DNA of 24,000 nt from Methanotrichaceae archaeon. Its GTDB lineage: Archaea > Halobacteriota > Methanosarcinia > Methanotrichales > Methanotrichaceae. This document shows positions 1 through 15,483 of the stretch, piece after piece. The position numbers and the translations under genes were made by a program. Each line of letters opens with the position of its first letter. The stretch's first letter is position 1. The notes under the pieces are model-generated. The model searched no databases, was not told the DNA's origin, and saw nothing but the letters and a program-made list of their open reading frames with translations. The stretch spans positions 3,057 through 27,056 of the forward strand of contig JBGQAL010000006.1 in NCBI GenBank assembly GCA_041494285.1, written 5' to 3'.

Positions 1-35
1 GGCCCTGGATGCCGCCCTGAAATAAGGTGTAACTC

Positions 36-992
36 ATGGACCTGGGCGCGGAGCCTGTGAGGAGGCTTAACAGCCACGGCAAACCTGCGCCGCATCTGTC
101 CATAAAGTTCGATTCCCATCTTTTCTCCATCGACACCAGCCGGTCGCCCAAGGCCTGCGTCCAGCCCGATGCTTACCTTATAACGCACGCTCACAGCGAT
201 CACTACGGCAAGTCGGCCATGCTCTCCGAACGATCCGTGGCCTCGGTGGAGACCGCCCGGGCACTGGAGATACGCTACGGCCGCAAATATCATGGTCGGA
301 CTTTCTCCGTTGGAGAGAGCATAATGGTAGGAGACGTGGAGGTCAAGACCCATCCCACTGGGCACACCATAGGCTCTGCAGCCTTCTCTTGGCAGACGGA
401 AGTCGGGACCAGGATTCTGGTCACTGGCGATGTCAAAGACTACAGCGCTCTTCCGCGCTGCGATTTTCTGATCTCGGAGGCCAACTACGGCGATCCCTGG
501 GACCCATCTTGCATCTTTGATGATGATCTGGCCGGCTTCTTCGAGGCCTTGGAGTCAGGTGCATCCTTCGGAGCTTACGCCTTCGGCAAGGCCCAGCGTG
601 CCGTTGCATTGATCCGGGGCATGGGATACAAGGGCGAGATAGGCATGGACTCTGAAAGCCTTGCCTTGACCAGAGAGCTCATGGCTGACTCCGGGCCTTA
701 CGTCGATGTCCAGAAGGACTGCACCAACGTGGTTACCCCTTGGAACCTGAACCAGGTTCGGGGTAACAACAAGTACATGCTCACAGGCAGGAGAGATATG
801 TCCTACCAAACTATCATGATCAGTGACCACCTTGATTTCCGTGGGCTGATGAAGATGGTGGAGCACGTCTCGCCGCAGGAGGTGCTGGTCTATCATCCCG
901 GAGGAGAGCGGTCGAACCTGCTGGCTCATCATCTGCAGCAGTGCGGGATGGAGGCCACATCGCTGGACCTGATAGAGAGCTTTTTTTGCTAG
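36..992 (+). CDS. Metallo-beta-lactamase-fold hydrolase (beta-CASP-like nuclease candidate)
   Basis: 318-aa ORF. ATG at 36 follows AAGGTG at 24-29. It has the MBL signature HAHSDHYG (HxHxDH), further His/Asp ligand-like positions (HPTGH, VTGD) and a C-terminal ...VLVYHPGG. The substrate cannot be inferred. Confidence 0.75.
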   Translation: MDLGAEPVRRLNSHGKPAPHLSIKFDSHLFSIDTSRSPKACVQPDAYLITHAHSDHYGKSAMLSERSVASVETARALEIRYGRKYHGRTFSVGESIMVGDVEVKTHPTGHTIGSAAFSWQTEVGTRILVTGDVKDYSALPRCDFLISEANYGDPWDPSCIFDDDLAGFFEALESGASFGAYAFGKAQRAVALIRGMGYKGEIGMDSESLALTRELMADSGPYVDVQKDCTNVVTPWNLNQVRGNNKYMLTGRRDMSYQTIMISDHLDFRGLMKMVEHVSPQEVLVYHPGGERSNLLAHHLQQCGMEATSLDLIESFFC

Positions 993-1381
993 CATTCTTT
1001 ATGAGCGTCTTCCTTCTTGGGCTTGAAACCTTCTTTCCCGATATCATCCAGGATTCTCGTCATGGATTTCTTGAGCGGCGGAATATCCTCTTTCAGAGTG
1101 CGCCAGACTACTTCCAAATCAACCAAATGGTACGCATGGATGAGCTTGTCTCGGGTTGCGGCCATTTCGCTCCAGGGAACTTCGGGATATCTATTCTTGA
1201 GGGATTTGGGTAAACCTTTTGATGCCTCCCCGATGATCTCCAGAACCTGAACGGCAGAGAGGGCTTTCTCTTCGTTGCTGCAAAAGGTCTCAAAGTCTAC
1301 CCCGATTGTTATTCTCTCGCCAATCTCTGCATATCGCAAAATGTCCAGCAGATAGTCCCGGAAATCCCTTTTATCCTTCAA
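989..1381 (-). CDS. hepT: HepT (DUF86/HEPN) toxin of a type VII HepT-MntA toxin-antitoxin pair
   Basis: 130-aa ORF with the RX4HXY motif (RDKLIHAY) and an N-terminus (DYLLDIL) typical of DUF86. The TTG start at 1381 overlaps the mntA stop (TTGA). Confidence 0.85.
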   Translation of the reverse strand: MKDKRDFRDYLLDILRYAEIGERITIGVDFETFCSNEEKALSAVQVLEIIGEASKGLPKSLKNRYPEVPWSEMAATRDKLIHAYHLVDLEVVWRTLKEDIPPLKKSMTRILDDIGKEGFKPKKEDAHKEC

Positions 1382-1701
1382 ATAGCTACCACTTCCTCCA
1401 GGATGCGCTTTCCTGCATACGGCCGCAGAGTCTTCTTCATGACCAGGTCTACCTTGATGCCCACTTGCTCGCTGAGATAGCGTTCCATACGTATGAGCTC
1501 GTAGAGGGTCGGAGCCTGCTCGAACTCCACCAATAAATCCAAATCACTGGTCTGCCTGGCTTCTCCACGAACATAGGAGCCGAAGACTCCCAGAGACTTC
1601 ACTTTGTAGCGCTCCTGGATATCGGGCATTATCCTTCGGAGGGTTGACTTAATCTCCTCTAGGGAGGGACGCTTCTCGGCGATATTTGATGAACGGGGCA
1701 T
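1378..1701 (-). CDS. mntA: MntA minimal nucleotidyltransferase antitoxin
   Basis: 107-aa ORF with the GS-x-x-RG...SDLDLLV motif (GVFGSYVRGEARQTSDLDLLVEF) of MNT-fold nucleotidyltransferases. ATG at 1701 follows AAAGGTGA. It lies directly upstream of hepT and overlaps it. Confidence 0.85.
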   Translation of the reverse strand: MPRSSNIAEKRPSLEEIKSTLRRIMPDIQERYKVKSLGVFGSYVRGEARQTSDLDLLVEFEQAPTLYELIRMERYLSEQVGIKVDLVMKKTLRPYAGKRILEEVVAI

Positions 1702-1742
1702 GGATTCACCTTTGCTGTAATGGAAGTCGCTTTTGAACGGGT

Positions 1743-1750
1743 TATTAAAA
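1743..1750 (-). promoter_or_regulatory. Candidate TATA box for mntA-hepT
   Basis: The minus strand reads TTTTAATA about 45 nt upstream of the mntA ATG. This would leave a short leader containing the SD-like AAAGGTGA. Confidence 0.3.
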
Positions 1751-2064
1751 TATCTCGTTCATTGCTTTTGAAGCCATCGATAATGTTAGATCTAATGATG
1801 TTCCGCAATGCATCAAGTCCCGGGAGATCCAGTACAGGAACAACGCATTCTGAAGGTATCAAAGATGTTTTTTATTACAGGATAAGAACACCCAGCATTA
1901 GATGTCCATAGAACACATCTTGCTGGAGGAGGTCCGGGATGTCATCCCGGAAGTTGCGATCAAATCTGCGGGCCCATTATCTGCAGCAGTGAGTATATTG
2001 AGGCTACATAACTGTAACAGATATAGCTATTGCAATAGGGTGTGTAATTTTAAGGGGTATTTAT

Positions 2065-2292
2065 TTACGATATCTCTTTTACTTTTTCGAGCAAACATTC
2101 CAAAAATCTCCTTGCTTCTTTGCTAAGTTTGGAATACATATACACAAAATCTTCCGGTTCAGTAGGTATTTGATTTAATCCAAGCCACCCAAATGCATCC
2201 CGTAGCGATTGACTAGATTTAATGATTTTTTTCTCATTACCATGATCCGGATCGTGACGCAACCACTTGTTTCTTAGTTGCTTATACACCAA
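2065..2292 (-). CDS. Terminal fragment carrying LRNKWLRHDPDH (possible HEPN Rx4-6H)
   Basis: 75-aa ORF with a TTG start and no SD. It overlaps the preceding fragment by 19 nt in another frame, so it reads best as a continuation of the same gene. Confidence 0.4.
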   Translation of the reverse strand: MVYKQLRNKWLRHDPDHGNEKKIIKSSQSLRDAFGWLGLNQIPTEPEDFVYMYSKLSKEARRFLECLLEKVKEIS

Positions 2293-2924
2293 ATGAATTC
2301 ACATTCGGATCCTTCTAAAACGCCTCCATTTTCTTGCAAAAAGCGTAACTTGTCATCTCCCGCCCCTTCATAAAAAATAGTATATAGTTTATCTATAAAT
2401 TGTCCAAAATCCTCTTTATCTCTTGGGACAAACAGCGAGAGATCTAAGATCGCATCAACTGCCTTATTTGTAGGCTTAAATATCTCAGATTTTTTTGCAA
2501 TTTTTGCGGCGTCGTTACATAAGGGGAGTAATTTAAGTGTTTCGCAGATATATTTACAAAAAATTGAATCTTCTCGGTTCTTGATAGAAAGTAATAAGTC
2601 TTCTCGAATTGAATGATTTGGCTTAATTAAGCGAAGTTCAGAATTTCTTATTTTCTTTAGATTTGTCGGATAATGTTCTGTCTTATCCAAATGGTCTAAC
2701 GCTGAATAATCAGGTACTTTTATAGTCTCAAGAACACTGCTTATTCCTGGAGCCATCGCTGATGCATAATCGCTTCCTACCGTTGATTTTAGACTATCGC
2801 ACAAGCTTTTAGATGCAAAAGCTAAATCGTCTTGCGCTTTCATTATTCCAGAGATGTCTGTTATACCTGGAGCCATCGCTGATGCATAATCGCTTCCTAC
2901 CGCTGATTTTAGACTATCGCACAA
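2274..2924 (-). CDS. Central/C-terminal fragment of the repeat protein (216 aa as tracked)
   Basis: It begins inside a repeat unit, so the tracked TTG start is not a credible native start. Two repeat units are followed by a non-repetitive domain of about 150 aa that I cannot assign to a family. Confidence 0.55.
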   Translation of the reverse strand: MCDSLKSAVGSDYASAMAPGITDISGIMKAQDDLAFASKSLCDSLKSTVGSDYASAMAPGISSVLETIKVPDYSALDHLDKTEHYPTNLKKIRNSELRLIKPNHSIREDLLLSIKNREDSIFCKYICETLKLLPLCNDAAKIAKKSEIFKPTNKAVDAILDLSLFVPRDKEDFGQFIDKLYTIFYEGAGDDKLRFLQENGGVLEGSECEFIWCISN

Positions 2925-3270
2925 GCTTTAGATGCAAAAGCTAAATCATGTTGCGCTTTCATTATTCCAGAGATGTCTGTTATACCTGGAGCCATCGCTG
3001 ATGCATAATCGATTCCTACCGTTGAATTTAGACCATCGCACAAGATTTCAGACGTTCGCAATGATGAAACAAAAGCTAAATCGTCTTGCGCTCTTTAATT
3101 ATTCCAGAGATGTCTGTTATACCTGGAGCTATCGCTGATGCATAATCGCTCCCTACCGTTGATTTTAGACCATCGCACAAGCTTTTAGATGCAAAAGCTA
3201 AATCATCCTGCATTTTCATTGCTCCAGTGATGTCTGTTATACCTGGAGCTATCGCCGAGGTATAATCGAC
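2744..3270 (-). repeat. Coding tandem repeat, about 4.5 copies of a 120-nt (40-aa) unit
   Basis: The string CCTGGAGC[CT]ATCGC recurs at 2746, 2866, 2985, 3122 and 3242, giving periods of 120, 119, 137 and 120 nt. The units are near-identical at the DNA level. Confidence 0.95.
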
Positions 3271-3387
3271 TCCTGGCATTGCCTTCATAATTCGCAATTC
3301 TGAATCCTTCATTCTATCAAAATCATCTCCCGTAACTGCCAACTCCTTCATGTATTTCGGCCATCTTTTTCCATCTAATCTCGACAA
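3076..3387 (-). CDS. N-terminal fragment of the repeat protein (103 aa)
   Basis: ATG at 3387 lies about 27 nt downstream of a consensus TATA box. The ORF holds two 40-aa repeat units and then ends at a TAG created by a 2-nt insertion relative to sister units. Confidence 0.6.
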   Translation of the reverse strand: MSRLDGKRWPKYMKELAVTGDDFDRMKDSELRIMKAMPGVDYTSAIAPGITDITGAMKMQDDLAFASKSLCDGLKSTVGSDYASAIAPGITDISGIIKERKTI

Positions 3388-3410
3388 GCGTTTTTAGTGC
3401 TTTTAAAGTA

Positions 3411-3418
3411 TATAAATA
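3411..3418 (-). promoter_or_regulatory. TATA box of the repeat gene (leaderless geometry)
   Basis: The minus strand reads TTTATATA, matching the archaeal consensus TTTAWATA. It is centred about 27 nt upstream of ATG 3387. Confidence 0.45.
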
Positions 3419-3506
3419 GGACCAGGGCAGGCCGAAAGTAATCCATGCTTAGCAATGATGGATAGCTGAGTTCAAATTGCGTTAATTGATAATCACAAGT
3501 ATTAAA

Positions 3507-4769
3507 TTATAAGTAATGCACAATCAGCGGCAGCATCAGCACTCCCATGGCGTGAGTCTTCCGGATTCCAGCCAATGGTGAGATCATCCCCACTATCGTT
3601 GAGATGACGAAGATGAACAGCCCAAACCATCCTGTGAAGGCCAGGGTCATGGCCGTCAGGCCCGCCAGCACGCCCAGGCAGAGCCGAGGGTAGTTCAGCC
3701 GTGATATCACTCTGGCAAAGACCCGTGCCGATCCTATGGCCGCAATATAAGAGGCTGCACCGACGGCTATTATTATCACCAGCATCTGAACAAGGATGTC
3801 CCAGTTCATGGTGATCAGCTCCTTTATGGCTGCAGATGCCCCGCTCCTGGGCTTGTCCACGGCGTAAAGGGCCACCAAGGAGAACAATGCGTTTGCGGTG
3901 TTCACCCCGGAGATGGAGACAAGAAACTCCTCTCCGGTGGAGGGAGCACCCAAGCGCGTGGCCATGGCAGCGATGGACGGCGACACCCCAGGAATCCAGG
4001 CAATCACCGATCCGCCCAGGCTGCCAAGTAAGACCGACCTGGCCAGAGAGCCAGCAGGGATGTGCAGACCAGTATCCTTCTGCTCCGGGATGCTTGTCCC
4101 TGAAGATAGGCTGATTATCAGAAAGGATGCTCCAAAGAGCCCTGATAGAAGGGGCAGCATGGGCTGGGTCTGCAAGCCCAGAGGTGACTGGAACATGCTC
4201 TCGTGGTTGAAGGCGAAGCTTCCCAGGAAACCGCTTGTCAGGAAGACCAGAATCGCCAAGATTTTGTACTTCAAATGGACCAGCGACCCCTGGCCCTCAA
4301 TCACTGGGCCGTTCTCTGTCTTGATCATGAAAAGAGCAATGACCAGCAGCAGGACTCCAACGTACTTCATCAAAAGATCGTTGTAACGAGAGAAGGTCCA
4401 GGATAGAGGAAAGACCAGGAGCATAGCGGCAATGATGGACCCTGCCGAGCCTATTGCCGATAGCCTGATGGCCTCTATCCCCCGTCCTTCGAGCATGAGG
4501 CTGTGGCCGGGCAGGACCGTCAGAATTGTGTCCGAGTCGGGTGCTCCCACGAACACCGCAGGGATGGCGTCGAAGAAGGTCTGGGAGATGGCCGCCGCCA
4601 GAATGATCGTTGACACATGATAGGGAGAAAGGCCGTAGGACATCAAAATGGGTGAAGCCGCCAGCAGCATGGCTGCGAAGTTGTTCACATGCAGGCCAGG
4701 GGTAAGCCCACTGATAGCCCCCAAGATCAGTCCCGCAGAGGCACAAAGGATTATTATAACGTCGATCAT
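3507..4769 (-). CDS. TctA-family (DUF112/COG1784-like) integral membrane transporter
   Basis: 420-aa polytopic hydrophobic ORF. Its N-terminal GLTPGLHVNNFA motif and Gly/Ala-rich helices recall archaeal TctA-like permeases. No solute-binding partner lies in the window. Confidence 0.6.
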   Translation of the reverse strand: MIDVIIILCASAGLILGAISGLTPGLHVNNFAAMLLAASPILMSYGLSPYHVSTIILAAAISQTFFDAIPAVFVGAPDSDTILTVLPGHSLMLEGRGIEAIRLSAIGSAGSIIAAMLLVFPLSWTFSRYNDLLMKYVGVLLLVIALFMIKTENGPVIEGQGSLVHLKYKILAILVFLTSGFLGSFAFNHESMFQSPLGLQTQPMLPLLSGLFGASFLIISLSSGTSIPEQKDTGLHIPAGSLARSVLLGSLGGSVIAWIPGVSPSIAAMATRLGAPSTGEEFLVSISGVNTANALFSLVALYAVDKPRSGASAAIKELITMNWDILVQMLVIIIAVGAASYIAAIGSARVFARVISRLNYPRLCLGVLAGLTAMTLAFTGWFGLFIFVISTIVGMISPLAGIRKTHAMGVLMLPLIVHYL

Positions 4770-4812
4770 AGCTGATTGAGAGATGATGATAGTAACTGTT
4801 GGACTTAATTTA

Positions 4813-4840
4813 ACATGTAAGGATTACATGTAAAGGATTA
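4813..4840. promoter_or_regulatory. Tandem direct repeat upstream of the TctA-like gene (candidate transcription-factor site)
   Basis: ACATGTAAGGATT (4813-4825) is followed directly by ACATGTAAAGGATT (4826-4839). Each unit holds the palindrome ACATGT. The pair lies just distal to a TTAAATTA TATA-like element at about 4804-4811 on the minus strand. Confidence 0.3.
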
Positions 4841-5083
4841 ATAGCTTACTGAGGCAGGCATTGCAGGATTGGCCGTTGAATGGGGTAGCCTTTGACCGTC
4901 TTGGTGCTGGCCCGTGTCAAAAAGCACAGCAAGGTGCAAATGGTGAAAACTCTTAAATACTGGTGAAGAGTCGGTTAATCATTCCGCACCTGGGGCAGGA
5001 GTCCCGGGGCGCATGAACCCGAAGGTTCGAACGTGCGTGCAGCGCGTGAGTGGGCCCGAAAGAGGCCTTGCGGAGGATTCAAG

Positions 5084-5446
5084 ATGAAAGCGATAGCTAA
5101 GACAAATCCGAGGTTGGTCCGCCTCATTGGCGACTTGAAGGCGGCATCCCGTAATAATAATGTTGGCCTCTGGCGCGACGTCGCTAGGCGGCTGGAGAAG
5201 CCCAAACGCAACTACGCTGCAGTAAACCTAAGCAAGATCAACAGGCATACCAGTCCTAACGATACTGTTCTCGTTCCCGGAAAGGTGCTGGCCTCAGGCG
5301 ACCTGGAGCATAGCGTGACTGTGGCTGCCCTGGGATTCAGTGGCCAGGCAATCTCCAAGATAGAATCGGCCGGCGGAAAGTGCCTCAAGATAGAGAGCCT
5401 GATGCAAGAGCACCCCAAGGGCTCCGGCATAAAGATTTTGAGGTGA
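5084..5446 (+). CDS. rpl18e: 50S ribosomal protein L18e (eL18)
   Basis: MKAIAKTNPRLVRLIGDLK... is typical of archaeal L18e. I moved the start from the tracked 5033 to ATG 5084, which follows GGAGG at 5072-5076. The gene heads the conserved L18e-L13-S9 order. Confidence 0.9.
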   Translation: MKAIAKTNPRLVRLIGDLKAASRNNNVGLWRDVARRLEKPKRNYAAVNLSKINRHTSPNDTVLVPGKVLASGDLEHSVTVAALGFSGQAISKIESAGGKCLKIESLMQEHPKGSGIKILR

Positions 5447-5450
5447 TCTC

Positions 5451-5867
5451 ATGATAGTTGATGCAACTGGATTGGTCATGGGGCGTCTGGCTTCAGTGGT
5501 CGCGACGCAGCTTTTGGCAGGAAACGAGATCAAGATCGTCAACGCTGAGAAGGCCATAATCACTGGCCGCAGAGAGAGCATTTACGAAGAGTACTTCGCT
5601 TGCCGTGACAGAGGGCACAAGGAGAGAGGCCCTTACTTCCCCAGAAGACCTGAGATGATAATGAAGAGGACTGTAAGAGGCATGCTACCCTACAAGCTAA
5701 GACGCGGACGGGATGCCATGTCCAGGCTCAGGATCTATATCGGCGTTCCCAGGGATCTGTCGGGACAGCAGTTCGAACAACCCCAGGCCGCAAAGGTCAG
5801 AGGATCCAGCAGTGCCAACTTTATCGAGCTGGGCGATCTGAGCAAGAGGCTTGGCGCACATTTCTGA
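5451..5867 (+). CDS. rpl13: 50S ribosomal protein L13 (uL13)
   Basis: [14 protein letters not shown]...[11 protein letters not shown] is a uL13 N-terminal signature. ATG follows GAGGTGA. Confidence 0.95.
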
Positions 5868-5877
5868 GAGGTTCTTT

Positions 5878-6276
5878 ATGAAGATAATCAACTCGTCCGG
5901 CAAGAAGAAGACTGCTACTGCCAGGGCTACGCTGAAGGATGGAAAAGGCAGGGTCCGGATCAACAAAATGCCCTTAGAGATTTATGAGCCCAAGCTGGCC
6001 AAGATGAAGATCATGGATGCCGTGACGATAGCCGACAAGCTGGTTCAGGGCATCGATATCGATGTAACAGTCAGCGGTGGCGGGACCATAGGGCAAGCGG
6101 ATGCAGTTCGTACTGCCATTGCCAAAGGGATAGTTGAGTGGACTGGAGACACTGGACTTAAAGAGGCTTACACTGAGTACGATAGAAACCTCCTGGTCAG
6201 CGACCATCGGCAGAAGGAGAAGAAGAAGTTCGGCGGTCATGGTGCAAGATCCAAGTTCCAGAAGTCCTACAGGTGA
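5878..6276 (+). CDS. rps9: 30S ribosomal protein S9 (uS9)
   Basis: [11 protein letters not shown]...KFQKSYR is a uS9 signature including the C-terminal tail. I chose ATG 5878 because it lies after the rpl13 stop; the tracked 5851 start overlaps rpl13. Confidence 0.93.
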
Positions 6277-6282
6277 AATGGC

Positions 6283-6468
6283 TTGATTCCAGTCAGGTGC
6301 TTTTCCTGCGGGAAAGTAATCTCTAATGTATGGGAGGAATACCGGGAGCGCATAAAAACTGAACCTCCCGACAAAGTCCTCGACGATCTGGGCATAGATA
6401 GCTATTGTTGCAGGCGCATGCTCCTTGCCCATGTGGAAATAGTGGAAACGCTAAGGCGGTACCAGTAA
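6283..6468 (+). CDS. rpoN: DNA-directed RNA polymerase subunit N (Rpo10)
   Basis: MIPVRCFSCGKVI...CCRRML is the zinc-bundle signature of Rpo10. The TTG start follows AGGTGA. Confidence 0.95.
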   Translation: MIPVRCFSCGKVISNVWEEYRERIKTEPPDKVLDDLGIDSYCCRRMLLAHVEIVETLRRYQ

Positions 6469-9154: not shown

Positions 9155-9901
9155 TTGGTTAAAGTGCTGAAGATCGGAGGAAGTATCCTGACTGACAAGA
9201 ATCGTCGATTGTTTGCCCGGTCTGAAGAAATAAATCGTGTGGCAGAAGAGGTTGCTCCTTACGCAGAGAACTTGATCCTAATCCATGGTGCCGGGTCCTT
9301 TGGGCACGTACAGGCAGAGGAGTACGAGCTTCGGGAAAAATTCAACCCTGAGGGCCTCAGGGTTACCCACAGTTCTGTTGTGGAGCTTAATCGCTTGGTG
9401 GTCGAGGCTCTGGCCCGATCTGGCGCAAACCCCATGCCCATTCACCCCTTTTCCTGCGTTACTCTGCGAGATGGAAGGATTGAGAGCTTCTCCTTGGAGC
9501 CCATCGGGCGGATGATCGAGGAAGGCCTCTTGCCTGTTCTGCACGGAGATGTGGCCATGGATATAACCCGCAGAGCTGGCATCGTCTCGGGAGATGATCT
9601 AGTTCCGTACCTTGCAAGATCATTGGACGCCGAGATCGTGGCTGAGGGCACTGACAAGGATGGGGTTCTAGTAGAAGGAAAGCCCCTCGAAAGGATAGGT
9701 TGGGATGATTGGTCTGCCGTAGAGAAGTTTCTTGGTGGGAGCTCCACTACGGATGTGACGGGTGGCATGAGAGAAAAGGTTCTGAAGCTTCTGAAACTGG
9801 CCGATGCGGGCATAAACTCTTTGATATTCAACGCCTCAAAGCATGGCTATATTTCCAGGGTTCTGAAGGGAGATGTATTGGGAACAAAGGTAGAGAGGTA
9901 G
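9155..9901 (+). CDS. ipk: Isopentenyl phosphate kinase
   Basis: LKIGGSILTDK and IHGAGSFGH are amino-acid-kinase-fold IPK signatures. The gene sits between mvk and the IPP isomerase. The start is TTG. Confidence 0.88.
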   Translation: MVKVLKIGGSILTDKNRRLFARSEEINRVAEEVAPYAENLILIHGAGSFGHVQAEEYELREKFNPEGLRVTHSSVVELNRLVVEALARSGANPMPIHPFSCVTLRDGRIESFSLEPIGRMIEEGLLPVLHGDVAMDITRRAGIVSGDDLVPYLARSLDAEIVAEGTDKDGVLVEGKPLERIGWDDWSAVEKFLGGSSTTDVTGGMREKVLKLLKLADAGINSLIFNASKHGYISRVLKGDVLGTKVER

Positions 9902-9903
9902 GA

Positions 9904-10989
9904 ATGACCACATCCAGCAGAAAAATGGATCACATCAGAATCTGCTTAGACCGGTCAGTAGAGACAGAACCCAAGCCATTTGACGACCTGATGCTCATCC
10001 ACAAGGCTCTTCCTGAGATCAGCGAGGCGGAGATCGATACGAGCTGCCTGTTCCTTGGACGGAAGATCGAGGCGCCCCTCATGATCACGGGCATGACTGG
10101 AGGCCATCCTGAGGCTCGAGAGATCAACATGAACCTGGCTGCGGCCGCCCAGGAGATGGGAGTGGCCATGGGCCTAGGTTCTCAGAGAGCCGCCTTGGAG
10201 GACCCAATGCAAGTGAAAACCTTTTCCATGGTGAGGGGAGTAGCACCAGACGTGCCCATAGTTGGCAACATTGGAGCCGTGCAGCTCAGAGAATCTGGTC
10301 CAGAGGTCCTGGACAGACTGGCGGAGATGATAGATGCCGATGCCATGGCCGTTCATTTGAACTTCCTTCAGGAGTCTGTACAGCCCGAAGGCGACAGAGA
10401 TGCCTCTGGGGTCTTGGAAGCTATTACCTCTGCTCGCAGTTCTGTTCCTGTGATCGTCAAGGAGACCGGGGCCGGAATATCCGGTGAGGTAGCCTCGGAA
10501 CTCCTGGATGCAGGAATCAAAATTGTGGACGTCTCGGGGGTGGGAGGCACCAGCTGGTCAGCGGTGGAGGCTCTCCGGGCAGAGGAAGCAGGAGACACAG
10601 AGTCTCTTCACATGGGCAGGATCTTCAAGAGCTGGGGAATTCCAACGCCCGTCAGTGTTGTGGAGTGCGCATTCGCAGGAGCAGATGTTATATCAACCGG
10701 AGGCGTTAGAAACGGTATAGATGTGGCAAAAAGCCTGGCCTTGGGCGCATCTATGGCAGGAATGGCCCTCCCATTGCTAGCGCCTGCATGTCGCGGCCCA
10801 AGGGAGGTGGAAAAAGCCCTGAAAGAGTGCATCAGGGCCCTCAGGATGTCAATGTTCCTGACCGGATGCAAGGATCTTTCAAGGCTTCGTTCAGCTCAGG
10901 TCGTAATCCTGGGAAGGACCAGGGAGATCCTGGAGCAGAGAGGCTTTGATACGAGAAAATTTTCTATTTACAGAGAGATGGCAAGATGA
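9904..10989 (+). CDS. fni: Isopentenyl-diphosphate delta-isomerase, type 2 (FMN-dependent)
   Basis: RKMDHIRICL, MITGMTGG and KETGAGIS are type-2 IDI motifs. The start is ATG 9904, right after the ipk stop. The tracked 9709 extension overlaps ipk and is not credible. Confidence 0.9.
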   Translation: MTTSSRKMDHIRICLDRSVETEPKPFDDLMLIHKALPEISEAEIDTSCLFLGRKIEAPLMITGMTGGHPEAREINMNLAAAAQEMGVAMGLGSQRAALEDPMQVKTFSMVRGVAPDVPIVGNIGAVQLRESGPEVLDRLAEMIDADAMAVHLNFLQESVQPEGDRDASGVLEAITSARSSVPVIVKETGAGISGEVASELLDAGIKIVDVSGVGGTSWSAVEALRAEEAGDTESLHMGRIFKSWGIPTPVSVVECAFAGADVISTGGVRNGIDVAKSLALGASMAGMALPLLAPACRGPREVEKALKECIRALRMSMFLTGCKDLSRLRSAQVVILGRTREILEQRGFDTRKFSIYREMAR

Positions 10990-12348: not shown

Positions 12349-13311
12349 ATGATCGACGAAGAGCTGGCTAGACGAGCAGGAATGATTTCCAGGGCGATAG
12401 AGGATCTCCTGCCCGTCGTCCATCCCATGGGGCTTTACAAGGCCAGCAGGCATCTGGTGGATGCCGGCGGAAAGAGGCTCAGGCCTTCAATGCTGCTGAT
12501 CGCCGCAGAGGCAACAGGAGGGGACCCTGTGGCCCTCGTGTCTGCTGCGGTGTCCATTGAACTGATCCATAACTTCACTCTGATCCACGACGATATAATG
12601 GACAATGCAAATATTCGCAGAGGTCGGCCTTCGGTCCACAAAATCTGGGGTGACTCGGGAGCCATCCTGGCCGGAGATACCCTATACTCCAAGGCATTCC
12701 AGATCCTGGGCAATACACCTGCGGAACCAAAGTTGATCCTTGAGTCCATGAACATACTCTCCAAGACCTGCACCGCTATATGTGAGGGACAGTGGCTGGA
12801 CCTGGAGTTCGAGAACAGGTCTCGCGTCTCCGAGGATGAGTATATGGAGATGATCGAGAAGAAGACCGGCGTCCTCTATGGAGCCTCCGCTTGCATGGGC
12901 GCTACGCTCTCAGGTGCATCAGCAAAAGAGGTTACAGGTCTAGATGAGTTCCGCAAGCTTACCGGAATGGGCTTTCAGATCCATGATGATGTACTGGATC
13001 TGACTGCTCCCGAGAAAGTCCTGGGAAAGCGACGCGGGGGGGATCTGGTAGGTGGGAAAAAGACTCTGATAATGATCCACGCCTTGGAGCATGGCGTCGA
13101 AGTGGATGTCTTTGGAAAGAAAGACGCTTCACCTCAAGAGATTGAAAAAGCCCTCTATGTTCTAGAGGAGGCTGGATCTATAGATTATGCCAGGACTCGA
13201 GCAGCCGATCTGGTGAGCCGGGGAAAGCGGGCTCTTGATGTCCTTTCCGACTCGCCCGCAAAGATGTTATTGCTGGATCTGGCCGATTACATGATCAGAC
13301 GAGGGTATTAG
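12349..13311 (+). CDS. idsA: Geranylgeranyl diphosphate synthase (short-chain trans-prenyl diphosphate synthase)
   Basis: First Asp-rich motif LIHDDIMD and second FQIHDDVLD, plus GKRLRP near the N-terminus. Confidence 0.9.
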   Translation: MIDEELARRAGMISRAIEDLLPVVHPMGLYKASRHLVDAGGKRLRPSMLLIAAEATGGDPVALVSAAVSIELIHNFTLIHDDIMDNANIRRGRPSVHKIWGDSGAILAGDTLYSKAFQILGNTPAEPKLILESMNILSKTCTAICEGQWLDLEFENRSRVSEDEYMEMIEKKTGVLYGASACMGATLSGASAKEVTGLDEFRKLTGMGFQIHDDVLDLTAPEKVLGKRRGGDLVGGKKTLIMIHALEHGVEVDVFGKKDASPQEIEKALYVLEEAGSIDYARTRAADLVSRGKRALDVLSDSPAKMLLLDLADYMIRRGY

Positions 13312-13326
13312 GAACGTCCGGGGAGA

Positions 13327-13536
13327 GTGCCTTATTTGAATAAGCACGAAGCACAACATCTTCTAGAACACTGGATAGAGCATAACGTCAGCCACAGCCG
13401 CTCGTTTCGTGAAAGGGCCAAGCAGATCGAAGAGATAAGCAGGCAGGCAGCCACAGAGATAAATCAGGCGGCTGACCTGATGGATAAGTGCACAGATATG
13501 CTAAAAAAAGCAAAAGATGATCTTGAGGTGAGATAG
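13327..13536 (+). CDS. Small helical protein with an N-terminal five-histidine ladder (unknown family)
   Basis: 69-aa ORF with a GTG start after GGGGAG. His residues fall at positions 7, 11, 15, 19 and 23 (H-x3-H repeated). The rest looks coiled-coil and contains a single Cys. Confidence 0.5.
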   Translation: MPYLNKHEAQHLLEHWIEHNVSHSRSFRERAKQIEEISRQAATEINQAADLMDKCTDMLKKAKDDLEVR

Positions 13537-13832
13537 TGGAAATGGTTTACTTTTACAGCACAGAAAACGAGAAGGCTATGAAGAAGGTACTGGACGACGA
13601 CCTGTTCGATGAGATTGTACCTACGATCGTGGAATGCAAGTTCATGGGCATAAACAAGGATGGCTTTTGCATGTACATCAAGGTCAGGGACGAACTAGCC
13701 CTCAAGGCTAAGAAGATGCTCTCCGAGTCGCCTGCCAAGGAGCTGACGGGCGAAGAGGGAGAGGCAGTGATCAAGGCATTCAGGGAGCAGGCCGAGGCTG
13801 CTGAGGCGGGGATGGGAGCGCTGTTTGGGTAA
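13536..13832 (+). CDS. Small acidic protein ending in a ribosomal-stalk-like tail (...AEAAEAGMGALFG), unknown family
   Basis: 98-aa ORF. The start is GTG 13536, which overlaps the upstream TAG by 1 nt, or ATG 13542; both follow GAGGTGA. The tail was read directly from gctgaggcggggatgggagcgctgtttgggtaa. Confidence 0.55.
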   Translation: MEMVYFYSTENEKAMKKVLDDDLFDEIVPTIVECKFMGINKDGFCMYIKVRDELALKAKKMLSESPAKELTGEEGEAVIKAFREQAEAAEAGMGALFG

Positions 13833-13908
13833 GTCTACTACATGCGATAAATCAATTCTTTGTCTTTATCTTATTGACACACAACACAATGTGTTATCTG
13901 ATTCTATA

Positions 13909-14026
13909 TTAATAACCATAAGGGGGCAAATACGATAGCTGAAGGTCTAATCACGTCCGATTTCATAGTAATAAGTTTAATAACCATATATCGAATTTTT
14001 CGCTATCGTAGATGCATGGTTATTAA
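13909..14026. repeat. Two-block inverted repeat (MITE-like or structured-RNA candidate)
   Basis: TTAATAACCAT (13909-13919) pairs with ATGGTTATTAA (14016-14026). TACGATAGC (13931-13939) pairs with GCTATCGTA (14002-14010). An extra direct copy, TTAATAACCATA, lies at 13977-13988. Confidence 0.5.
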
Positions 14027-14134
14027 CAAGCCCGGAGTTTAGGTTATAACTCAAGTCGATTTTCCCGATTATCCCAGACGATGCAAATCGCGAAGCATTC
14101 ATTTAAATATATGAGCATTAACATTATTTGATTT

Positions 14135-14141
14135 AAAAAAA
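14135..14141 (-). terminator. Oligo-T (T7) archaeal terminator candidate for the minus-strand gene pair
   Basis: An A7 run on the plus strand, so T7 on the minus strand, about 74 nt downstream of the stop at 14215. Confidence 0.3.
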
Positions 14142-14214
14142 GGTAACTTTTGAGGTTTTATTGGGCCACTTGTACTTATTGTCCCATCCGATAATATGGT
14201 AGCACAGTTAAAGC

Positions 14215-14688
14215 TCAAGATGCTGGTCGTGTTGAATTATTCGCAGGTGTTGAATTGGGTTTTCCGTACAAGATGGGGATATCTCCAACAAAATATTCTT
14301 TCAAATCGCTTGCATCCAGCGTCGGAAGATTAGTTTTGCTTTTGCCTGCATCAGGATTAAGACTTTGTGTCAGGGGCACATCTTTCTGGCGGAAGTCTTG
14401 CAACGAGAATGGTATAGTGCTATTTGTATCATTTATGCCCTGATTTATGACACCCTCTGAAGCCCATCGCCCAGAATCAGGCAAGGTCCATGGCTTAAAT
14501 GCGTTCAACTTAGGATTCTGCTCGGTAATAAGCTTGGCAGCTGCAGGATCTATGCTCATGAGATCTACTTTCTGGACTGTATGCCCCTGATGCTGAAGGG
14601 CAATATCAGCAGGAGTTTGCAAGGGAGTCTGAGCAGGCACAAGGCTCAAGAGGATAAAAAAGGAAAAGATAACTAAGAGTAATCTCAT
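14215..14688 (-). CDS. Secreted protein, unknown family (signal peptide, several N-glycosylation sequons)
   Basis: MRLLLVIFSFFILLSLVPAQT looks like a signal peptide. Sequons NDT, NST, NST and NNST are present. ATG 14688 overlaps the upstream stop (ATGA) and follows GGTGGGG. ATG 14709 is an alternative start. Confidence 0.6.
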   Translation of the reverse strand: MRLLLVIFSFFILLSLVPAQTPLQTPADIALQHQGHTVQKVDLMSIDPAAAKLITEQNPKLNAFKPWTLPDSGRWASEGVINQGINDTNSTIPFSLQDFRQKDVPLTQSLNPDAGKSKTNLPTLDASDLKEYFVGDIPILYGKPNSTPANNSTRPAS

Positions 14689-15059
14689 TTTCTTTTCCCC
14701 ACCCACCATTTCGTTCCCAGACTACTTGTATTATAAAATCCTGGCTTGCCTTCAATACCCAATTTTCTCATCCTAGCCAGCATGATCTCAGGGTCAACTC
14801 CAAAGGTCTTAACGAACTCCTCCCTTGACATCTTGGTGCCTTGGGCGGTAGTATAAATCTTCTGACCTGAGACAGATTCTACTACTCCAGCAGGGAGACA
14901 CCACTCAAAGCCCGTTGGCGAAAGGCATCCACAGGCGTCTGGATTGGACATATCCCTGGGCACTACATTGACTGCTCCACACTCTCCGCAGATGAATTCC
15001 TTAGGTGGCTGAGAGACTTCTTTTTCTGAGCCACACCCGTGACAAATCAGCACTACCAT
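14685..15059 (-). CDS. Zinc-ribbon protein, unknown family
   Basis: CHGCGSEKE...CGECG forms a CxxC...CxxC ribbon. ATG 15059 follows a strong AAGGTGAGGA. The tracked TTG at 15161 would add a hydrophobic helix (IWQIASAFSILIVFLISY) but has no SD. Confidence 0.55.
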   Translation of the reverse strand: MVVLICHGCGSEKEVSQPPKEFICGECGAVNVVPRDMSNPDACGCLSPTGFEWCLPAGVVESVSGQKIYTTAQGTKMSREEFVKTFGVDPEIMLARMRKLGIEGKPGFYNTSSLGTKWWVGKRK

Positions 15060-15483
15060 TTCCTCACCTTCTGGCACTGATTTCCACCAGACCTTACTAT
15101 AGCTTATTAGGAAGACAATTAGGATGGAAAATGCAGATGCAATTTGCCAAATTACTCTCAAATCATTTAAAGTCTTTCCTAGCTACGAGCGTTCAGCTCA
15201 ATTGAAATAATAATAGTCAAAAGCCTAAAGATTCATACTCATTGACCACAATGATAAAGCAGCGAATGCTTGTTATTCGTTTCAATCTTTGATGCGGAAC
15301 TATGCAAAGATACACAGGTCATTCGCATAAAGTAAGGAGGCCGTAATCGAAGAATATCGCAAGAGATACGAACGTCTCACAAATGAAAGAAGCAAGGTTT
15401 GTGAAAAGAACAGCTTTTCACTCTCCTGCAAAACCTCACCTTCCAAAAGACAAATAAACTTGAATATCCCTCCCGATTAGGAT

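Follow-up and report, generated by a model that had tools for sequence, protein, structure and literature searches.

What occupies the AT-rich stretch between a tctA-like transporter gene and the mntA-hepT toxin-antitoxin pair of a Methanotrichaceae archaeon? We asked this of a 24,000-nucleotide (nt) region of contig JBGQAL010000006.1, referred to below as the window, in which an initial annotation had noted an AT-rich islet between mntA and the TctA-like gene and, on its minus strand, a repeat-containing gene broken by frame lesions. The islet is readily visible in windowed guanine-plus-cytosine (GC) content, which is 34-42% across positions 1950-3450 and 50-60% on both flanks. It contains a disrupted gene at window 2065-3351 (-), for which, as well as for its family, we use the working name X; the GC content of this gene is 38.2%, compared with 56% for tctA and 50% for mntA-hepT. 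On balance, we favor the view that X in the window represents a stand-alone defense-type effector gene of an undescribed family, in a copy that was inactivated recently. The copy as such would be an ordinary, recently dead gene, its interest being the family that it reveals.

A scan of species-representative genomes placed the nearest relatives of the window in Methanothrix, with a 93% amino-acid match for the metagenome-assembled genome (MAG) fen_7. The loci compared here are L001, an annotated contig that has its gene order in common with the window; L002, the Methanothrix MAG fen_7 (PMNG01000121.1); L038, the LacPavin MAG of Methanothrix; L043, a short metagenome contig of a close relative, a fen_7-type Methanothrix; and L044, the Joint Genome Institute (JGI) contig Ga0534157_0000401. 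The last of these is 99.97% identical to window positions 1-6381. Within these 6381 nt, only two differences were found, namely two transitions in mntA, at 1522 and 1533, separated by 11 nt.

The three open reading frames (ORFs) of the interval had been taken for fragments of one gene, and the comparison with homologues bears this out. X homologues are single proteins, and the L001 orthologue, P0002, is intact. Three-frame translation follows X through the reading frames in the order 0, 2, 1, 0, and since the underlying indels (+2, -1, -1) sum to zero, the N- and C-terminal frames coincide. Running from ATG 3351 to the TAA at 2065-2067, X encodes 428 amino acids (aa) once the three indels are conceptually repaired. 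For 428 codons without a stop in DNA of 38% GC, simple arithmetic gives a chance of about 1e-13, assuming a stop chance of ~0.066 per codon in a random frame. The three indels can be located against the relatives, an intact syntenic orthologue exists, and the fragments are collinear to one protein. The possibility of three separate genes could be dismissed, as the homologues continue across the junctions and read through the third frame switch. In an annotation, the three ORFs should thus be merged as one pseudogene.

All three lesions proposed initially were recovered, and their coordinates are good to a few bases (Table 1). Lesion 1, a 2-nt AG insertion in the second repeat unit, shifts the frame and creates the TAG at 3076-3078; here, the window reads AAAGAGCGC against AAAGCGC. 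The same 45-aa unit occurs in L043, where the insertion is absent (ATGAAAGCGCAGGAC, compared with ATTAAAGAGCGCAAGAC in the window). Lesion 2, the loss of a single base from a four-base run in the third unit, was judged against the sister units. The third frame switch could be narrowed down to the loss of one A relative to fen_7 (TGTAT-AAGCAA in the window, TGCATAAAGCAA in fen_7; i.e., ATAAG versus ATAAAG). This last lesion lies within the conserved C-terminal domain, three codons before an R-N-x4-H motif, and in 94/97 homologues the RNKW part of this motif and its eight preceding residues (..IWCxKxLRNKW..) are encoded in one uninterrupted frame across the lesion site. In contrast, a 15-nt in-frame segment at ~3055-3069, which had been listed as a further insertion, does not count as a lesion but as a variant allele, because it is also present in the L043 unit, where the frame is intact.

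How recent is the damage, and is it real? All three indels, together with the whole repeat array, are also found in the second assembly, L044. Over the C-terminal domain, the ratio of nonsynonymous to synonymous substitution rates (dN/dS) between the window and fen_7 is 0.13 (dS 0.21), with a value of 0.064 for the flanking metallo-beta-lactamase gene. A dN/dS of this size over the domain indicates that selection acted until recently. Since the repaired frame has accumulated no further stops and the domain is still under purifying selection relative to its nearest relative, the knock-out would itself be recent.

The same features have to be weighed against the alternative that X is intact in the organism and that the three indels arose as artefacts of sequencing or assembly, stemming from homopolymer miscalls or from mis-assembly of a near-identical 120-nt array. 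The lesions do fall in error-prone places: lesions 2 and 3 each remove a single nucleotide from a run of A (A4 and A3, respectively), while lesions 1 and 2 lie inside the array. The zero sum of the indels, with the resulting coincidence of the outer frames, the dN/dS of 0.13 and the absence of extra stops from the repaired frame would also suit an intact gene. In addition, L044 possibly comes from the same study and hence is not fully independent, and the +2 shift in tctA of L043 shows that such short contigs can hold errors. Yet the sequence with all three indels is identical in an assembly that differs from the window at two other sites, and homopolymer errors would not be typical of runs as short as A3 and A4. 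Moreover, every other gene of the window is as long as its orthologue, and the same gene is independently disrupted in related genomes, so that a genuine loss of X would come as no surprise here. We consider an artefact unlikely and a recent, real decay of X in the window likely. As for the tctA shift in L043, positions 125-140 of this contig (window ~3690-3705, in the 3' part of tctA) read GATATATCACG compared with GATATCACG in the window, a 2-nt insertion that shifts the end of tctA and may reflect either a mistake in a contig of low coverage or a genuine lesion.

Could the frame breaks instead be a regulatory device, such as slippage-driven phase variation or programmed -1 frameshifting? 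All three shifts have the same direction modulo 3, so that the last frame equals the first, two of them sit in short A runs, and the promoter block described below is intact. However, there is no slippery heptamer at any of the sites, where the runs are only 2-3 nt long, which led us to discard programmed frameshifting. In addition, three separate events would all need to be bypassed, close relatives carry in-frame sequence, and other lineages have been inactivated by unrelated means, all of which renders regulation very improbable. Thus, of the three options left open by the initial annotation (recent decay, slippage switching or assembly error), decay is favored, slippage is very improbable, and an artefact is kept as a lesser rival.

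A feature of the locus that we had to revise is the 5' end of the gene. X had been predicted to start at an ATG at 3387 with leaderless geometry, but the codon at this position is TTG, and three orthologues support ATG 3351, where the N-termini read MKEL (window), MEEL (L001) and (M)DEL (L038), giving the pattern M[KED]EL. The L001 sequence has an in-frame TAG 15 nt upstream of the X start. A leaderless ATG 3387 was rejected on these grounds. The TATA-box-like element TTTATATA, previously placed at 3411-3418, is located 2 nt closer to the gene (Table 1). On its own, the element is weak evidence, because one match was found with 0.38 expected by chance. It belongs, however, to a promoter block that is conserved in L043 and L001 (ACTTTCGGCCTGCCCTGGTCCTATTTATATACT in the window, ACTTTCGGACCGCACCGGTCTATTTTAAATACT in L001). 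Transcription would be expected to start near 3387, ~25 nt after the TATA element, leaving a leader of ~35 nt before ATG 3351; X is therefore not predicted to be leaderless. A scan for sigma-70 promoters and terminators returned only chance-level matches; note that the sigma-70 model is not relevant to an archaeon.

Downstream of its start, X contains the tandem array, for which about 4.5 near-identical 120-nt units had been estimated and for which we find four full units and a partial fifth. On the minus strand, the units start at 3267, 3147, 3010, 2891 and 2771; three of them measure 119-120 nt and one 137 nt, in agreement with Tandem Repeats Finder (TRF), which reported periods of 119 (94% matches) and 137 (90% matches). 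They encode DY[AT]SA[IM]APGITDI[ST]G.MK.QDDLAFASKSLCD.LKSTVG[SI]. The array of L043 comprises ~1.5 units compared with 4.5 in the window, showing that the copy number varies. For the repeat region of the window, AlphaFold2 predicted long helices, albeit at low confidence, with a predicted local distance difference test (pLDDT) score of 45-70.

We were particularly interested in the family to which this broken gene belongs. Homology searching yielded 97 proteins from cyanobacteria, Planctomycetota, Myxococcota and metagenomes, most of them 400-470 aa long, which are 45-65% identical over the last 150-170 residues. A profile of this C-terminal part matched 717 clusters at 50% identity, 551 of them with E<=1e-10, and in the 150 best matches listed out of these 717 clusters the domain was always C-terminal. 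None of the Pfam, NCBIfam or PADLOC families matched the repaired X protein or its homologues, in line with the early impression that neither the repeat nor the middle part resembles a known family. What had been divided into a middle domain of ~150 aa and a separate C-terminal helical domain proved to be one conserved domain of ~170 aa, which defines the family. AlphaFold2 models it with seven helices at a pLDDT of 95.4 and a predicted template modeling (pTM) score of 0.90.

By contrast with this uniform C-terminus, the family members have N-terminal halves that fail to align with each other. Clear N-terminal tandem repeats are present in ~20/165 members, with periods of 14-64 aa; examples are a different 40-aa repeat in P0003 and a 17-aa repeat in P0010. 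A variable, mostly helical and often repeat-bearing N-terminal half is thus a trait of the family, and this repeat-bearing, length-variable part is a candidate specificity module. One broken archaeal gene thereby defines a large family that is absent from Pfam, NCBIfam and PADLOC and has a sharply conserved candidate active site.

This candidate active site is the R-x5-H string in which the initial annotation had recognized a possible HEPN RNase motif. Its conservation argues against a chance occurrence: in an alignment of 42 domain sequences with a mean column identity of 50%, R, N and H of the motif are invariant, the full set of invariant positions being N25, F37, E74, G77, R82, L105-R-N-K-W109, H112, G117 and P142. 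D113 and H116 are conserved in at least 90% of the sequences, in the context LRHD[PA][DE]HG, but in some members both are exchanged at once (RHNPDRG, RHNIERG).

HEPN domains carry an Rx4-6H signature with a polar residue (N, D or H) after the R, positioned where core helix 3 ends and the loop to helix 4 begins; helix 2 contributes an acidic residue, often as Ex3[KR], and an insert separates helices 2 and 3 (Anantharaman et al. 2013, PMC3710099). The X domain resembles this description in each of these respects. R106 and H112 form an Rx5H pair that is invariant in the alignment (with RNKW in 94/97 homologues), and the equally invariant N107 directly follows R106. In the AlphaFold2 secondary structure, helix 97-110 ends with R106-N107, H112 sits in the loop 111-118, and the next helix spans 119-135. 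An invariant E74 is located at the end of helix 58-74, within the consensus EGAGK (Ex3K; EGAGD in the window), and residues 75-96 form an insert with a short hairpin inside the model.

Sequence and structure searches, however, weigh against a HEPN assignment. The X protein matched no HEPN model of Pfam at E<=1, and across the 42 members no such model appeared consistently at E<=10, with one of the 42 matching HEPN_DZIP3 at E 0.08. With hhalign, the comparison of the X domain with 113 HepT/DUF86 sequences gave a probability of 0.2%. Foldseek found nothing significant in the PDB, where HEPN entries appeared at E 2-4, and nothing significant in BFVD either. A sequence-profile search of the PDB yielded spurious matches only, to repeats of a de novo TIM barrel. 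Likewise, the HepT-like profile PF01934, which describes toxins about 110-130 aa long, did not match X, while it scored the neighboring hepT at E 4e-22. The comparison with HEPN families called for at the outset has therefore come back without a significant match from Pfam, hhalign (HepT/DUF86) or Foldseek.

These negative results leave room for the alternative that the C-terminal domain is not a HEPN RNase but another helical module, be it metal-binding or regulatory by way of H-D-x-D-H or a protein-interaction domain, with a convergent R-N-x4-H. Besides the missing profile and Foldseek support, the high conservation of D113 and H116 could be read as a metal site, and seven helices exceed the minimal four-helix bundle. 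The metal-site reading is weakened, though, because D113 and H116 are jointly replaced in some members, whereas R106, N107 and H112 alone within the motif string never are; moreover, the position of the motif, the upstream invariant Glu and the inter-helix insert match the published description of HEPN domains (PMC3710099). We consider a non-HEPN module possible yet rather improbable. That the domain works like a HEPN RNase is, in our judgement from sequence and model, the best mechanistic reading and a probable one, while its membership in the HEPN superfamily is plausible but unproven. What stands of the initial proposal is therefore the motif and its setting, and what does not is support from profile, hhalign or Foldseek comparisons.

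Among characterized HEPN groups, the Swt1-like 'Ava_2192' type, which is fused to the N-terminus of DUF499 ATPases (PMC3710099, PMC12839542), offers the closest set of features, as compared by description: an R-N-x4-H within Rx4-6H with the polar residue after R, a motif at the helix end and loop start, an acidic residue in the preceding core helix, and an insert (PMC3710099). X differs in its R-H spacer of five residues, the commonest being four, and in being a separate protein whose domain follows a long repeat-bearing region and is not fused. With the Abi2/AbiD/AbiF, AbiJ and AbiU2 effectors, which are stand-alone HEPN proteins, X has in common a variable N-terminal module joined in a single protein to a HEPN-type C-terminal domain (Table 1 of PMC3710099), as well as the occurrence in or near restriction-modification-like operons (PMC3710099). 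In contrast with those effectors, X has no Pfam Abi or HEPN match, and a tandem-repeat N-terminus is not described for these families. HepT, the toxin of the type VII toxin-antitoxin pair HepT-MntA (HEPN/MNT), also possesses an Rx4-6H-type motif, but X is 3-4 times larger and hhalign was negative, arguing that X is not a HepT paralogue.

If X is an effector, its genomic neighborhood might reveal what it serves. We called ORFs and clustered the neighbors in 41 species loci from the genome scan, 36 of which had a scorable X. In 8/36, spread over Cyanobacteria, Planctomycetota and Alcaligenaceae, X directly follows a DUF1156 adenine methylase (HmaB); these are the loci of Rivularia, Scytonema, Phycisphaerae, Gemmataceae, a Planctomycetales MAG, Alcaligenaceae, an unclassified MAG and Pirellulales. 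HmaC, a DUF499 AAA+ ATPase, comes directly after X in seven of these eight hmaB loci, the Planctomycetales contig L017 showing none. An SNF2 helicase (HmaA) lies upstream in the X-bearing Hma loci, and gaps between X and its neighbors are 0-15 nt in most. The names HmaA, HmaB and HmaC were assigned by PADLOC with E values down to 1e-130. In diverse bacteria, X thus occupies a specific slot inside Hma/BREX-related operons. A second type of defense system was seen in Methylobacter psychrophilus, where X lies ~300 nt downstream of the pglZ-brxL genes of a BREX type 1 system (L031 218-6483). In the X-bearing Hma locus of Rivularia, a Fic/DOC-domain protein is additionally encoded directly upstream of hmaB (L003 542-2014; PADLOC SoFic, E 6e-22).

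The Hma system, which Payne et al. 2021 (PMC8565338) put forward, consists of the HmaA helicase, HmaB methylase and HmaC ATPase and has been reclassified in a 2026 survey as a BREX-related (BR) system of type 1 with DUF499 at its center (PMC12839542). According to this survey, a HEPN domain is fused to the N-terminus of the DUF499 ATPase in 1370/2446 type-1 BR taxa, and such loci also contain stand-alone nucleases, including HEPN, in the role of auxiliary or back-up effectors (PMC12839542). All seven HmaC proteins beside X begin with an unfused N-terminus, without a HEPN fusion, which fits X supplying the HEPN module in trans. That X takes the slot in which a HEPN is fused to other DUF499 ATPases also speaks against the non-HEPN alternative discussed above. 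The seven unfused proteins count as one observation, because these ATPases are closely related; in a search with HmaC, 120/120 of the matches listed started with MALKPWYK, that is, were of the unfused type, with longer ones carrying HNH_2.

The family is nevertheless not part of the Hma core. While members are embedded after hmaB and in 7/8 loci directly before hmaC, X is outside the defined three-gene set, has no PADLOC model, and resides mostly in loci without Hma genes. Several points weigh against a general role in defense: 27/36 scorable loci are not beside a recognizable defense system and show no consistent partner, a scan of viral contigs found no X relative, and the function of the family is itself a prediction from sequence, models and analogy. 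The association of the X family with defense is therefore best described as real but partial. In the window itself, there are no Hma or BREX genes, nor any ORF of at least 900 aa in the 24 kb. For the small defense or addiction locus envisaged initially, this means that a defense-type role is plausible, given the Hma/BREX operons and pglZ-brxL, whereas the pairing with HepT-MntA does not hold as a trait of the family.

Methanothrix is a key acetoclastic methanogen, in which, to our knowledge, few defense genes are known. Inspection of the relatives showed that X is syntenic in four Methanothrix lineages, always after tctA, with tctA synteny seen in L001, L038, L043 and L044. What follows X varies. 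In L001, an intact 368-aa P0002 is succeeded by a minimal nucleotidyltransferase (MNT) gene without HepT and then by hicAB; in L038, X is followed by MNT and HepT; and in fen_7 (L002) and in the window and L044, by mntA-hepT. The HepT-MntA pair is hence the direct same-strand downstream neighbor of X in the window, L002, L038 and L044, with only MNT in L001. Among the 25 most frequent Pfam families of bacterial X neighbors, out of 110 families, there was no MNT. The co-occurrence with HepT-MntA, a point raised in the initial annotation, is thus local Methanothrix synteny and not a family trait, and we found no evidence for control of X by MntA. The L001 cargo spans 9445-10701 and consists of the 95-aa MNT, which lacks a HepT partner, together with a single HicB-like gene and the pair hicA-hicB.

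Because this downstream cargo differs in L001, we regard the interval from tctA to the metallo-beta-lactamase gene as a variable toxin-antitoxin/defense hot spot. Methanothrix X genes have 36-39% GC compared with 56-61% for tctA, while bacterial homologues follow the local GC. Between the Methanothrix lineages, TctA proteins are 63-76% identical and X domains 45-64%. As X is syntenic and of low GC in lineages that have diverged to this extent in TctA, it has either been at this site for long or been exchanged among Methanothrix, without amelioration. The idea of a compositionally foreign islet thus survives with regard to the low GC, but not with regard to a recent arrival, which we rejected in view of the same site and equally low GC in the four lineages. 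For Methanothrix, a conserved hot spot of tctA, X, mntA-hepT and hicAB emerges, in which defense-type genes would be gained, kept at low GC and repeatedly inactivated.

The state of X in these lineages is intact in L001, broken by three indels in the window and L044, broken by a 1-nt deletion in L038, and interrupted by an insertion sequence (IS)-like element in fen_7/L043; X has been inactivated independently and recurrently in Methanothrix. In L038, the deletion at ~5075-5080 (GTGGAC to GTGAC) breaks the conserved domain just before YEGAG. The X of this lineage has short repeats of its own (..QESL/RESL.. periods). In the fen_7-type X, the L043 sequence ends at ...ATTGCAAA and continues with GGCAGTGTAACGAATTTTCTG, and L002 begins with an inverted copy, CAGAAATTTCGGCACACTACC, followed by ATTGCAAAAAAAT. 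The two contigs hold the two ends of an IS-like inserted element, seen at L043 987-1107 and L002 1-21; its site corresponds to ~2492-2499 of the window, which itself has no copy. The ends of the element are the inverted copies GGCAGTGTAACGAATTTTCTG and GGTAGTGTGCCGAAATTTCTG, with an apparent 8-bp target duplication, ATTGCAAA, and ~95 nt in from the left end an ORF begins with MIPKDLLED. Each contig breaks off within the element, which is what a multicopy IS would lead one to expect. A TnpB/OrfB-like ORF (193 aa, with a zinc-ribbon CxxC...CxxC end) at L002 5859-6440 runs off the far end of the fen_7 locus and is apparently unrelated to the insertion in X.

These observations suggest how X may work. 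The C-terminal domain would be a metal-independent RNase of the HEPN type acting as a dimer, with the variable N-terminus sensing or regulating, so that intact X may serve as an auxiliary or back-up abortive-infection effector. In bacteria, it would do so from a position immediately upstream of the DUF499 ATPase within Hma/BREX-related operons, or, in one instance, from behind a BREX type-1 operon. In Methanothrix, X occupies the presumed toxin-antitoxin/defense hot spot between tctA and mntA-hepT. The strain of the window would then have had X knocked out by three small indels (+2, -1, -1), and sister lineages have lost it in other ways, through the IS-like insertion or the other 1-nt deletion. 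Such recurrent loss by different routes is in keeping with a gene that is costly or toxic to its own cell and is discarded again and again. Should the domain be a HEPN RNase, X would represent a stand-alone counterpart to the HEPN domains fused to DUF499 ATPases and provide a handle on the way in which the little-understood systems of these ATPases set off abortive infection.

A bolder scheme, which we put forward tentatively and consider doubtful, would have the X family as a new self-contained sensor-effector immunity protein. Here, a fast-evolving helical N-terminus, diversifying as its tandem repeats expand, contract and turn over, would recognize phage components and release an RNase domain that is either HEPN-like, of a type not classified before, or entirely new, making X a detachable 'suicide' arm of Hma/BREX-type systems that is costly and has repeatedly been inactivated in Methanothrix.

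Table 1. Coordinates of gene X, its lesions and domains, and the flanking genes in the window
Feature	Position	Strand	Support
Whole disrupted gene X	2065..3351	(-)	Frames, single-protein homologues, orthologue N-termini
Lesion 1, 2-nt AG insertion in unit 2	3091..3094	(-)	Unit alignment, frames, L043
Lesion 2, 1-nt deletion in unit 3, A4 to A3 on the coding strand	2927..2929	(-)	Sister-unit alignment, frames
Lesion 3, 1-nt deletion, A3 to A2	2282..2283	(-)	fen_7 comparison, homologue reading frames
Tandem array, four full units and a partial fifth	2741..3267	(-)	Unit alignment, TRF
Conserved C-terminal all-helical domain, ~174 aa, family-defining, HEPN-like	2068..2588	(-)	Alignment, AlphaFold2, profile search
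Codons for R-N-K-W-L-R-H, invariant R-N-x4-H (Rx5H)	2254..2274	(-)	Alignment and model
TATA-box-like TTTATATA	3409..3416	(-)	Within promoter block conserved in orthologous loci
tctA-like transporter gene, upstream neighbor of X	3507..4769	(-)	Pfam TctA, E 7e-59
mntA (minimal nucleotidyltransferase antitoxin), downstream neighbor of X	1378..1701	(-)	Pfam NTP_transf_2, E 3e-18
hepT (HEPN/DUF86 toxin)	989..1381	(-)	Pfam HepT-like, E 4e-22

The remainder of the 24-kb window is archaeal in content, with an rpL18e-L13-S9 cluster, tRNA-Pro and mevalonate-pathway genes. Apart from X, its genes are full-length relative to their L001 orthologues, and its largest ORF measures 528 aa. An Rfam scan of window 1500-3700 gave no match. 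A second stretch of lower GC (44-48%) is found at 13300-15200. None of its ORFs matched Pfam; they comprise two overlapping ORFs on the minus strand, 14215-14709 and 14685-15161, and a 98-aa ORF at 13536-13832.

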